A DNA stretch of 64,000 nt from Candidatus Omnitrophota bacterium (GTDB lineage: Bacteria; Omnitrophota; Omnitrophia; Omnitrophales; Aquincolibacteriaceae), in the NCBI GenBank assembly GCA_022709525.1, contig JAKLIQ010000006.1, positions 66,708-130,707 on the forward strand. The letters run 5' to 3'. The notes under the pieces were generated by a model. The model saw only the letters and a program-made list of their open reading frames with translations, had not been told where the DNA came from and did no database searches. Below, piece after piece: positions 19,825 to 22,253 of the stretch. The position numbers and the translations under genes were made by a program. Each line of letters starts with the position of its first letter. Within the stretch, counting starts at the first letter, position 1.

Positions 19825-20574
19825 TTATTTCTGGGCTTTTCCCTGGCTGGCGACGGCTTCCATCGCGGCCTTGATCTTTTCCTGGTCTCCCAGATAGTAA
19901 TGCTTGATCGGCTTGAGGTTCTTATCCAGTTCATAAACGAGCGGGATGCCGGTCGGGATATTCGTCCCCACGATCTCTTCTTCGGAAATATGATCCAGAT
20001 ATTTCACAAGCGCGCGAAGGCTGTTGCCGTGCGCCGCGATCAGGACTTTTCTGCCCGCCTTGATCATCGGAGAGGCGACATCGTGCCAGAAGGGAAGGAC
20101 GCGGGCGACGGTATCTTTAAGACATTCCGTGAGCGGAAGATCGCTTTTTCTTAGAGCTGCGTAACGCGGGTCCTTGGCCGGGTTGCGGGGATCGTTCTCC
20201 TCAAGCGGCGGCGGCGGGGTATCGTAACTGCGGCGCCAGATCTTGACCTGCTCTTCGCCGTATTTGGCCGCCATTTCCGATTTATTGAGGCCTTGGAGCG
20301 AGCCGTAATGGCGTTCATTCAATCGCCAGTCTCGGATCACGGGGATCCACATGAGGTCCATCTTATCCAGCACGATCCAAAGCGTCCGGATCGCGCGTTT
20401 TAAAACGGAAGTAAAAGCGATATCAAAAGCATAACCTTCTTTTTTTAGCAGTTCACCGCCCTCAGCCGCCTCGCGCAGGCCTTTTTCCGAAAGGTCCACG
20501 TCGGTCCAGCCGGTGAACCGGTTCTCTTTATTCCAGGTACTTTCCCCGTGACGGATCAGAACGAGTTTGTACAT
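19825..20574 (-). CDS. gpmA: 2,3-bisphosphoglycerate-dependent phosphoglycerate mutase
   Basis: [29 protein letters not shown] is the canonical dPGM N-terminus with the catalytic His. Confidence 0.9.
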
Positions 20575-20624: not shown

Positions 20625-20666
20625 CAAAAGATATGAGGGGCTGGGGACATTTCCCAACCCCTCATG
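20625..20666 (-). terminator. hairpin + T-run downstream of the tRNA-Asn 3' end
   Basis: On the minus strand: AUGAGGGG-uugggaaauguccccag-CCCCUCAU followed by AUCUUUUG. Confidence 0.6.
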
Positions 20667-20715
20667 AAATATAAGAACTCCCCCGCCTGGGATCGAACCA
20701 GGGACACTGCGGTTA

Positions 20716-21262
20716 CGGTCTGACTTCAGTTACCTGAAGAGTCGGACTTTCTCTTTGCCATATCCAAAATTCAAGGACTTAGGCAGCAGGTGTAAAGTCT
20801 CTGCACTTGCCCTCCGCGCCTTTCGGCGCAGGTGCTAGCTCAGGATTGCCCGCCATGAATCTTTGACGGATTTCCCTGACTTAGCCTGCTTGTCACCTCA
20901 ATGTTTCCATTGAGGGCTGCTAACTTTGAGCGTGAAGTTCCCGATGGCAATTGGCACAAAGCATAATACATTTATCCAACTCCTCCTGGACCCGCTTCCA
21001 GCTTCGCGTATAACCTTTACTGGAAATACTAAAGTCCTTTTGAGCCGGATCACGATGATGAAATTCTAAAGCTTCCATACAACGGGCATATCCACATTTC
21101 TGGCATTTGCCTCCTTTATAATCGACGGCCATGAGGCGGACTTTCTTTCGCCTTGCATGAACCGCTCGTATAAGGTATGGCCTGCGATCGCTGTATCGAC
21201 GCTTATCTTTCTTCATCGATTGCTTTGTGCCCCTTGCACTCGTTTGCTTTGCTCACTCGTGC
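20716..21262 (-). mobile_element. group I self-splicing intron (~547 nt) with HNH homing-endonuclease ORF in the P1 loop
   Basis: The 5' exon ends in U and the intron ends in G. The internal guide sequence GCAGCC pairs with the exon end GGCUGU (6 bp including the U.G wobble). P2 is CUCAAUG-GAAA-CAUUGAG. A P-like GGGAAAUCCGUCAA, an R-like GUGCAGAGACUUUACA, an S-like AAAGAGAAAGUCC, and a P9 CUUCAG-GUAA-CUGAAG hairpin precede the terminal G. Confidence 0.75.
20920..21216 (-). CDS. HNH homing endonuclease (intron-encoded)
   Basis: 98 aa with CQKCGY...EFHHRDP...NLCANCH (HNH/zinc-finger motif). Lies entirely inside the intron; its stop codon UAG overlaps the first nucleotide of the IGS. Confidence 0.75.
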   Translation of the reverse strand: MKKDKRRYSDRRPYLIRAVHARRKKVRLMAVDYKGGKCQKCGYARCMEALEFHHRDPAQKDFSISSKGYTRSWKRVQEELDKCIMLCANCHRELHAQS

Positions 21263-21531
21263 ACAGCCGCATGCTCTACCAGCTGAGCTACAGGGGAAAG
21301 CCCTCGGAGTCCGTTAGGATCTTCCAAGGAAGCCCCCATTATAAAGATTGTCGTTTAGGGGTCAATGGGTGTTTTAAAACGGTGTGTTTTTATTTTGTCA
21401 TGTTGGAGCGGCATAAACGAGAACATAATAATATTCTTTTAATTAATATTTATATTGCAATAAAGCAATATTAAGGTAACCTTCCTTAGCGAGAAAGGCG
21501 CCTTGCGTGTTTATACCAAATATGGTATATT

Positions 21532-21915
21532 ATGAACAACTGTAAAAAAATAAAACCTTTGGATTTCATAGGGTCATCGCGGGAAGACTTAAAAAATTTT
21601 CCCAATGAGGTGAAGGAAGATATCGGGTACGCGCTCTTTGAAGCCCAGCAAGGATGTAAACCGGCATGCGCTAAACCTCTTAAGGGATTCGGAGGGGCAG
21701 GCGTTCTCGAGATCCTGGAAGATCATCGGAGCGGAACTTACCGGGCGGTTTATACGGTAAGGTTCGCCGGCGTTATTTATGTTTTACATTGTTTTCAAAA
21801 AAAATCGAAGCACGGCGTCAAAACACCGCAGCAGGATATAGAATTGATCCGGAGAAGGATAAAAGCGGCGGAAGAAGATCATAGAACTTATTACGAGACA
21901 GGCGGTAAGGCATGA
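21532..21915 (+). CDS. type II toxin, RelE/ParE superfamily (HigB/Gp49-like)
   Basis: 127 aa, upstream of and overlapping by 4 nt an HTH antitoxin gene (reverse TA order, as in higBA). The C-terminal YVLHCFQKKSKHGVKTPQQDIELIRRR is typical of this family. Confidence 0.55.
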   Translation: MNNCKKIKPLDFIGSSREDLKNFPNEVKEDIGYALFEAQQGCKPACAKPLKGFGGAGVLEILEDHRSGTYRAVYTVRFAGVIYVLHCFQKKSKHGVKTPQQDIELIRRRIKAAEEDHRTYYETGGKA

Positions 21916-22253
21916 GCGGAAAAGAAAAAATTCAAAGAGGAAGCGGAAATGTTTTTGCGGATATCGGAGCGGTGTATCCGGATCGCGTCCAGGTCCGCGC
22001 GCAAGTCATGTTCCGAATTGCGGAAATCCTCCGCGAACGGGGATTAACGCAAAAACAGACGACCAAGCTTCTCGGGATCCCTCAATCCAAAGTGTCCTGT
22101 CTCATGAACGGAAAGCTCAGCGCGTTCTCTTTGGATTATCTTTTTAAGATCCTGAACGCGCTCGACAGGGATGTGGAGATCGTCATCCATCCGAAACGCC
22201 GGGAAGAAAGAACGGCAGTGACCCAGGTTTGGCTCAGAACCGCTTTTGCTTAG
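21912..22253 (+). CDS. HTH XRE-family antitoxin (HigA-like)
   Basis: 113 aa; LTQKQTTKLLGIPQSKVSCLMNGKLSAFSLDYLFKIL is an XRE/Cro-type helix-turn-helix. Confidence 0.6.
   Translation: MSGKEKIQRGSGNVFADIGAVYPDRVQVRAQVMFRIAEILRERGLTQKQTTKLLGIPQSKVSCLMNGKLSAFSLDYLFKILNALDRDVEIVIHPKRREERTAVTQVWLRTAFA

Follow-up and report, generated by a model that had tools for sequence, protein, structure and literature searches.

In the 64,000-nucleotide (nt) stretch of the Candidatus Omnitrophota contig JAKLIQ010000006.1 analyzed here (the window), the gene for tRNA-Asn(GUU) on the minus strand is interrupted between anticodon positions 35 and 36 by a 547-nt group I intron (20716-21262), and the P1 loop of this intron carries an open reading frame (ORF) of 98 amino acids for an HNH endonuclease (20920-21216). 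The observation is confirmed to be real and correctly read, and the evidence makes it highly probable that the intron is self-splicing and that the HNH gene is, most likely, a homing gene. A first-pass annotation of the window had already placed the split tRNA at these positions, recognized the intron as group I and located the ORF in the stretch that separates the guide sequence from the 5′ splice site; it had also described a GAAA-capped P2, core sequences of P4 and P7 and a GNRA-capped P9 just before the terminal G. All of these hold. Unless a strand is given, the features below lie on the minus strand.

The 5′ exon (35 nt, 21297-21263, TCCCCTGTAGCTCAGCTGGTAGAGCATGCGGCTGT) supplies the acceptor strand, the D arm, the 5′ strand of the anticodon stem and bases C32, U33, G34 and U35. 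The 3′ exon (38 nt, 20715-20678, TAACCGCAGTGTCCCTGGTTCGATCCCAGGCGGGGGAG) supplies U36, A37 and A38, the 3′ strand of the anticodon stem, the variable loop, the T arm, the other acceptor strand and the discriminator base G73; CCA is not encoded. When the halves are joined in silico, ARAGORN calls the product tRNA-Asn(gtt) with a normal cloverleaf, in which the acceptor, D, anticodon and T stems all pair and the anticodon loop reads CUGUUAA. The junction (...CUGU/UAA...) sets the insertion between positions 35 and 36, and among nine offsets tested it alone leaves the 5′ exon ending in U and the intron ending in G. The ligated junction in the mature tRNA would most likely run from ...GCGGCUGU directly into UAACCGCA... 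(...GGCUGU/UAACCG...). Applied to the 64-kilobase (kb) window in its default mode, ARAGORN called zero tRNA genes; in its intron mode it reported a tRNA-Thr(cgt) with a 547-nt intron instead.

The same split recurs in relatives. The set of loci used for this comparison numbered 95, of which 94 were fetched and one was the window, and the tRNA halves were sought in each as a T arm preceded by G/TAA, then a complementary anticodon-stem strand followed by CTGT. The gene resolved to tRNA-Asn(GUU) split at 35/36 in 90 of the 95, with an exon-terminal U and an intron-terminal G in 90 of 90; the other five are four loci cut by a contig end and the locus L056. Recovery of the same split across relatives is far beyond chance.

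The intervening RNA is a group I intron by several measures. The search with Rfam RF00028 (Intron_gpI) that the first-pass annotation had proposed was positive, at 57.5 bits against a gathering score of 50 (E = 5.9e-12, 20944-20723); the match spans the full model (1-253), and relatives score 58-90 bits. The internal guide sequence, comprising the P10 and P1 strands (20916-20924), lies 342 nt into the intron, directly after the coding part. Its P1 strand, GCAGC (20920-20916), is present in 72 of 72 distinct introns and is complementary to GCUGU, exon bases 31-35, including a U35.G wobble at the splice site. Both strands are nearly invariant, and covariation is therefore of no help for P1. The earlier description of the guide had paired GCAGCC with GGCUGU; the pairing and the splice-site U.G pair stand, but the helix comes to five base pairs (bp) rather than six, because the sixth guide base covaries with the far strand of P2 (C-G in 35 relatives, U-A in 5). 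P10 is an addition to that description: GUUA (20924-20921) can pair with UAAC, the bases with which the 3′ exon begins. In three of three loci where the 3′ exon reads TAAT (a tRNA with U39) the guide reads ATTA, yet three other loci carry ATTA opposite TAAC.

Downstream of the guide, the elements of the ribozyme follow in order. P2 is an 8-bp hairpin with a GAAA tetraloop (20896-20915). The next segment (20805-20889) holds the 5′ strand of P3 (20889-20885) and the P4-P5-P6 domain (20879-20805), and the catalytic core (20744-20801) comprises the 5′ strand of P7 with its bulged A, G(A)GACUU (20801-20795), the 3′ strand of P3 (20790-20786), P8 (20785-20756) and the 3′ strand of P7, AAGUCC (20749-20744), so that P3 and P7 form a pseudoknot. 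The last segment (20716-20743) contains a P9 hairpin with a GUAA tetraloop (20743-20722), the 3′ tail and the terminal G at 20716. To assess this fold by covariation, 40 non-redundant ribozymes of the window's type were aligned under a hand-written structure of P2-P9 with the P3/P7 pseudoknot. A fold from RNAalifold was dropped in favor of the hand-written one, since it allows no pseudoknot and paired the 3′ strand of P7 spuriously with the intron tail. Under the P2-P9 model 98.1% of cells pair, against 31%-44% when the partners are slid by 1-3 columns, and compensatory changes occur in 27 of 46 pairs; 0 of 500 shuffles reach the observed values. The changes fall in 8 of 8 pairs of P2, 4 of 5 of P3, 3 of 4 of P5, 3 of 5 of P6, 3 of 4 of P8 and 5 of 8 of P9. 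P4 is invariant save for one pair that switches between G.U and A-U, and P7 is invariant save for one covarying pair (U-A in 30, A-U in 10). The P3/P7 pairing is thus supported by the relatives.

The 5′ side of the P1 loop is closed by a hairpin formed in the fold of the intron's first 27 nt (GCAC-GA-G...C-GA-GUGC, 21236-21262). A hairpin with tandem G.A pairs is found here throughout the family, and the window's version of it is degenerate; 30 of 78 distinct relatives contain the strict motif, where shuffles would give 0.2. In its family form (first 25-45 nt of the intron; L001, L005, L010, L038, L047, L067 and others), a short outer stem is followed by two tandem G.A pairs and then by an inner stem that covaries freely, and the hairpin occurs in introns with and without an ORF. 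It could be a docking element or a protein-binding site.

In its sequence and outline the intron resembles a compact group I intron of subgroup IC3. Its core is collinear with that of a cyanobacterial tRNA-Leu IC3 intron, and the P4, J6/7-P7 and J8/7-P7 sequences of the two are nearly identical. With the cyanobacterial tRNA-Leu(UAA) and Azoarcus tRNA-Ile introns it shares a core of ~200 nt, P2, a short P5 and no P5abc, GNRA loops on P2 and P9 and a site in the anticodon loop. The classical IC3 introns differ in lying in other tRNAs, at the 34/35 or 36/37 site, and in having no ORF, whereas the P1 loop of the window intron, with the hairpin and the ORF, is ~340 nt. The window core also aligns with a published Nitrospirota tRNA-Asn intron, although it is without the ~30-40 nt insertion between P7 and P3 of the Nitrospirota "IA1" tRNA-Asn introns; the tRNA-Asn rows that are legible in Table S5 of the survey by Nakagawa et al. 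(2026; mSystems, PMC13011429), three from Nitrospirota and one from Patescibacteria, are labeled IA1. At least three ribozyme variants (39 loci, among L020 and L038-L097) hold the same HNH gene in the same position; one of them has a ~30-40 nt insertion between P7 and P3, and another differs in its P4-P6 region. This suggests reshuffling of endonuclease gene and ribozyme at the tRNA-Asn 35/36 site.

The ORF (21216-20920) occupies the space between the 5′ splice site and the guide, and its UAG stop codon (20922-20920) takes in the final two P10 bases together with the wobble-pair G at the splice site. Two HNH families of PHROGs match it, phrog_2255 with E = 2.8e-29 and a second with E = 2.1e-25. 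Twenty relatives are invariant at C38xxC41, H53 H54, N89, C87xxC90 and H91/H95, that is, in the HNH motif and two zinc-binding CxxC pairs, and the N-terminal third of the protein is very basic and nearly invariant among them. When the PDB was searched by profile, McrA matched weakly at its C terminus (E = 0.0027), and the other matches were chance ones. Of the 90 resolved loci, 86 have the 86-codon core intact. The median proportion of nonsynonymous differences (pN) is 0.19, against a saturated median of 0.87 at synonymous sites (pS), and the ratio of the two substitution rates (dN/dS) is ~0.09 for the 90 pairs in which dS can still be estimated. This combination of an intact core, low pN against saturated pS and low dN/dS indicates that the ORF is under strong purifying selection and has been kept, in all likelihood, as a working protein over a long time.

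The position of the ORF is equally constant. It lies inside the intron in 85 loci, where its start is 12-99 nt downstream of the 5′ splice site; in 3 loci it stands next to the tRNA. The CANCH codons and the GCAGC guide are separated by 20-27 nt in 72 of 72 distinct introns. The reading frame continues through the guide into the ribozyme in 63 of the 72 and ends on the guide in 9 of the 72, the window among them. ORF-less introns of the same type also exist and look intact. A heuristic for the start codon and ribosome-binding site picked TTG as the start in 36 of 71 cases and is too coarse to be trusted. Avoidance of Asn codons by the ORF, as a possible feedback device, was also weighed and rejected: the core contains 1-5 Asn residues, and only the catalytic Asn is invariant.

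An exact-sequence look-up of the 98-residue protein returned zero matches. The public annotation of the window's source, a metagenome contig of 551 kb (JGI 3300010429, Ga0116241_10000025), shows a 70-residue gene in this region (L015:443-655); the tRNA is not annotated, and the full 98-residue protein is not on record there. The shorter gene is probably the same ORF called from Met29, and it is likely that the tRNA-Asn HNH intron family is systematically under-annotated.

A scan of bacterial genomes, with one genome per species, gave 290 matching stretches. Among the best 80 loci, 45 are labeled Omnitrophota or Omnitrophica; the other labels are Melainabacteria, Nitrospirae, Pyrinomonadaceae/Acidobacteriota, Elusimicrobia, Aerophobetes, NPL-UPA2, Patescibacteria group and "Planctomycetia". 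The closest intron relatives of the window copy are from Omnitrophota, and relatives across phyla stand at similar divergence; the copy in a metagenome-assembled genome (MAG) labeled "Patescibacteria group" (L080) is 72% identical. A large protein collection holds more than 700 relatives of the HNH protein at 70%-91% identity.

Three bacterial loci, L027 (1501-2300), L060 (1501-2270) and L083 (1501-2210), show a different arrangement. The HNH gene is free-standing upstream of tRNA-Asn, in L083 directly after recR, and a TTGACA-17-TATAAT promoter lies between the HNH gene and the tRNA. The tRNA-Asn gene itself contains an ORF-less intron of the same ribozyme type (236, 288 or 312 nt). By its layout this arrangement looks like an intermediate between an endonuclease gene beside an intron and one inside it.

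Relatives of the HNH protein are also common in phages. A viral collection (IMG/VR) contains at least 560 of them at 47%-68% identity, and in the best 80 viral loci (L098-L177) the HNH gene is free-standing inside phage tRNA arrays. An HNH motif and a tRNA call are both present in 74 of these 80 loci, and in 49 of the 74 the closest tRNA is tRNA-Asn(GUU). After de-replication at 80% identity it is the nearest in 22 of 46 clusters and each other tRNA in at most 3, while tRNA-Asn makes up 15% of the tRNAs present in the phage arrays. The gap from the CxxCH motif to tRNA-Asn in phages is mostly 10-120 nt and most commonly 27 nt. In L105 and L117 a free-standing HNH gene stands beside a tRNA-Asn with an ORF-less 35/36 intron (194 or 206 nt), and in L108 the HNH gene lies inside the tRNA-Asn intron. 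GenBank holds 463 phage records with a relative; in Vibrio phage F86 (L179, OZ196285.1) the HNH copy abuts tRNA-Asn. ARAGORN also reported possible suppressor tRNAs, with anticodons tta and cta, in two HNH-bearing phage arrays (L125:179-255 and L107:684-764).

ORF44 of Salmonella phage Felix O1 (NP_944863.2), an HNH endonuclease, shares 49.5% identity with the window protein along the whole of the latter and lies inside a phage tRNA cluster, where it overlaps the start of tRNA-Ile (L178, NC_005282.1 25030-25584). It differs from the window protein in being larger as annotated (a 486-nt coding sequence), in abutting tRNA-Ile rather than tRNA-Asn and in having no intron involved. More distant members of the HNH clade may have other tRNA genes as their targets. 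A published case of a free-standing homing endonuclease from a phage tRNA region is T4 SegB (PMC2330249), which the window's HNH relatives beside tRNA-Asn resemble in this respect. In collaborative homing, a free-standing endonuclease is paired with an ORF-less intron, as in cyanophage F-CphI/psbA and T4 mobE (PMC6083498, PMC2790892), and L027, L060, L083, L105 and L117 likewise pair an HNH gene with an ORF-less 35/36 tRNA-Asn intron. SegB is a GIY-YIG enzyme and F-CphI has an Endo VII motif, unlike the HNH proteins here, and cleavage and inheritance were measured for those systems, whereas for the HNH clade they are suggested by gene position alone. In a published model, the endonuclease is first adapted to the site where an intron inserts and enters that intron afterwards (PMC3984707). 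By analogy, the arrangements in the HNH clade match the free-standing and collaborative-homing models, which implies no direction of movement. As judged from gene order, the family may preserve every stage in the birth of a mobile intron, from an endonuclease in a phage tRNA array, to one beside an ORF-less intron, to one inside P1.

The insertion site itself has been described before. The first-pass annotation had pointed out that tRNA-Asn is not among the four classical tRNA intron sites; this is correct, but the site is not new, since Williams (2020; bioRxiv 10.1101/2020.01.27.920355) extended the four classical types to 21 and listed tRNA-Asn 35/36 as "Asn.4Ug", and self-splicing of such introns has been demonstrated (PMC13011429). 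Nakagawa et al. (2026) found 15 tRNA-Asn 35/36 introns in 95 complete Patescibacteria genomes and showed that two 35/36 introns of Patescibacteria, one in tRNA-Asn and one in tRNA-Asp, self-splice precisely in vitro, with a terminal-G mutant as control; sequencing of reverse transcription PCR (RT-PCR) products proved the 35/36 junction. ORF-less tRNA-Asn introns spliced without protein. In their survey of 4,934 complete genomes, 28 introns were at 35/36, 19 of them in Patescibacteria and the remainder in Cyanobacteriota, Nitrospirota, Bacillota_A, Bipolaricaulota and Pseudomonadota, and such introns were judged rare outside Patescibacteria. HNH genes were reported in four tRNA-Asn introns; 12 of 333 tRNA introns exceeded 500 nt, and all 12 encode endonucleases.

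Comparison with these data ties the window intron closely to the published family. The tRNA, the insertion point, the exon-terminal U, the intron-terminal G and the GCAGC guide followed by a GAAA-capped P2 are shared, as is the ARAGORN miscall as tRNA-Thr. In Table S5 of PMC13011429, the 569-nt Patescibacteria intron of GCA_000503835.1 encodes the same HNH family (..RRRKLKMLAVEY..ALEFHH..CSNCHKEIH), followed directly by GCAGC and P2; a 347-nt Nitrospirota intron has an HNH remnant (..CADCHR..) in the same place, and the ORF-less tRNA-Asn introns have P1 loops of 7-35 nt. In contrast to the window, Omnitrophota are absent from the phyla listed for 35/36 introns in complete genomes. The window intron thus belongs to an already described family and site, of which it is a well-preserved further example. 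New here are the Omnitrophota host, the purifying selection on the ORF, the constant abutment of the ORF on the guide, the free-standing phage relatives beside tRNA-Asn and the intermediate arrangements.

Other introns offer partial parallels. The cyanobacterial tRNA-fMet introns and the tRNA-Arg(CCU) introns also combine a homing endonuclease gene with a group I intron in the anticodon loop, but their enzymes are of the PD-(D/E)XK and LAGLIDADG families, respectively, and not HNH. In fungal mitochondrial group I introns the P1 loop can hold the endonuclease gene; one such intron is Hypomyces aurantius cox3-i2, where the coding sequence lies between the 5′ splice site and the guide as in the window (PMC4964425). 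Those genes encode LAGLIDADG proteins and interrupt mitochondrial protein-coding genes, whereas the window gene encodes an HNH protein in a bacterial tRNA and overlaps the guide with its 3′ end.

The surroundings of the gene include putative transcription signals. A sigma-70-type promoter (TTGACC-16-TATAAT, 21338-21365), predicted from the consensus alone with 11 of 12 matches, lies ~40 nt upstream of the tRNA 5′ end, and a consensus scan gives an intrinsic-terminator-like hairpin of 13 bp with a U-tract (20633-20665) that lies 13 nt past the discriminator base. Because promoter and terminator flank the tRNA, the gene would form a complete single-gene transcription unit. Just upstream of the promoter, on the plus strand (21532-22253), are two genes resembling a HigB/HigA toxin-antitoxin module, a Gp49/DUF891 gene followed by one for an HTH_37 protein. 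On the other side the tRNA gene is adjoined by gpmA (19825-20574, minus strand). This gene is also found in a related Omnitrophota MAG (L019:440-1214) at 81% nucleotide identity; there, however, it sits on the opposite side of the tRNA and in the opposite orientation, which indicates a probable rearrangement at the tRNA locus. A cyclic di-AMP riboswitch (RF00379; 16963-17098, minus strand; 83.1 bits against a gathering score of 38) is unrelated to the intron.

On this evidence the following course of events can be proposed. After transcription, the guide would pair with exon bases 31-35 to form P1 and bring the U35.G wobble to the splice site, and P10 would arise from pairing of the GUUA ahead of it with UAAC, the four bases that open the 3′ exon. 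The P3-P9 core would bind guanosine at the G-C pair beside the bulged A in P7 and perform two transesterifications, releasing the mature tRNA-Asn. The most likely targets of the HNH protein are tRNA-Asn genes that lack the intron; it would cut them at the insertion site or close to it, whereupon repair would copy the intron together with its gene into them. Because the last codons and the stop lie on the guide, completion of the ORF by a ribosome and formation of P1 should be mutually exclusive on one RNA, and the protein is for this reason probably made from unfolded precursor or from the excised intron. Self-splicing by way of the long-range P1 and P10 is the best-supported reading, since the required sequences are in place, the fold covaries and related introns splice in vitro; the window copy itself would accordingly be expected to splice, and translation and splicing would be expected to interfere with each other. 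DNA cleavage by the HNH protein, and its specificity, are predictions, and we infer homing from the catalytic motif, the patchy distribution across phyla and the association of the clade with tRNA-Asn genes.

Several points weigh against self-splicing and homing by the window copy. The Pfam HNH model PF01844 gives the window protein 19.4 bits, below the cut-off of 21.4; 17 of 20 relatives match the model at E < 0.01, and the shortfall appears to be the near miss of a short, divergent member, outweighed by the PHROGs matches and the invariant motif. The AlphaFold2 model, made from a 20-sequence alignment, is too poor to confirm a beta-beta-alpha-metal fold, with a mean predicted local distance difference test (pLDDT) of 59 and a predicted template modeling score (pTM) of 0.40. 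For a homing enzyme with sequence specificity, a length of 98 residues is very small, and formation of P1 has to bridge 342 nt. A second, uninterrupted tRNA-Asn could be present elsewhere in the genome, of which the 64-kb window, with no other tRNA, was examined. Finally, conservation of the protein in the face of saturated synonymous sites seems unlike a selfish gene decaying after fixation, and the HNH protein may for this reason have another or an additional role.

This last point is developed in an alternative that accepts splicing of the intron. The HNH protein, however, would be no homing endonuclease for the tRNA-Asn site, or would by now be more than that, and would be kept for the benefit of the intron or the host. 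It might, for example, give maturase-like help to the distant guide, bind the tandem-G.A hairpin or act as a general nuclease. Classical selfish endonuclease genes are expected to decay once fixed, and the strong, long-term purifying selection with a core intact in nearly all loci would be consistent with such a role; so would the basic, nearly invariant N-terminal third, the conserved hairpin adjoining the ORF and the physical fusion of ORF and guide. We nevertheless consider it unlikely that homing has been replaced or supplemented in this way. Neither the catalytic HNH residues nor the two zinc-binding CxxC pairs vary, and the same clade stands free beside tRNA-Asn in phage arrays, the typical setting of a DNA-targeting homing enzyme. 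The ORF-less introns look intact, and those published from tRNA-Asn genes need no protein for splicing (PMC13011429). The spread over several phyla at similar divergence fits continued horizontal homing, which would be able by itself to maintain selection. A related and similarly doubtful proposal is that HNH protein and ribozyme work as one integrated unit and not as a vehicle with a selfish passenger, or else that the family preserves the whole series of stages in mobile-intron birth. As an integrated unit, translation of the ORF could gate the formation of P1, because the last codons of the ORF encode the guide and selection is strong across hundreds of species, and it could hence gate the supply of what is possibly the only tRNA-Asn; the protein might bind the tandem-G.A hairpin and so bring splice site and guide together across 340 nt.

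Of a self-splicing intron with a homing gene, two further doubts concern the tRNA gene rather than the protein. The locus could be a dead relic, neither expressed nor spliced, with a second intact tRNA-Asn doing the work elsewhere, for which there would be room in a genome of which 64 kb is visible. This is very improbable, given that both exons are perfect and have promoter and terminator signals, that every core helix is intact and the family consensus is matched at all invariant positions, and that the ORF is uninterrupted and under purifying selection; no other tRNA gene occurs in the window, and the interrupted gene is the only tRNA-Asn copy in published Patescibacteria genomes (PMC13011429). 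The intron-mode call of ARAGORN, for its part, would shift the boundaries by two bases and make the gene a tRNA-Thr(CGU). It was rejected, and almost no weight can be given to it: the shifted intron would end in C and not in G, the exons are tRNA-Asn-like throughout, with G73, and close to intron-less tRNA-Asn genes, and miscalling of Asn as Thr through exactly this two-base shift is a documented artefact of ARAGORN and tFind, the 35/36 junction having been proven by RT-PCR sequencing (PMC13011429).

The understanding of group I introns or homing endonucleases is not changed by this locus. It is worth recording as a clean example from Omnitrophota, for the wider host range, for a pitfall in tRNA annotation and for the link to the endonucleases of phage tRNA arrays. 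Because default ARAGORN misses the gene and the intron mode calls a tRNA-Thr, tRNA inventories can mislead: genomes with the intron appear to lack tRNA-Asn or to have an extra tRNA-Thr, which would distort completeness estimates in Omnitrophota and other uncultured phyla. The picture of the host range of 35/36 introns also needs widening, as the published survey was of complete genomes only and the genome scan adds a set of matches in which Omnitrophota labels predominate among the best loci. With 98 residues of enzyme and a ribozyme of ~210 nt, the system is a compact one for studying how a single RNA accommodates both translation and ribozyme folding. For the model in which an endonuclease invades an intron, the family offers an unusually complete natural series: the gene occurs next to a tRNA-Asn that has no intron, next to an intron that has no ORF, and within the P1 loop.

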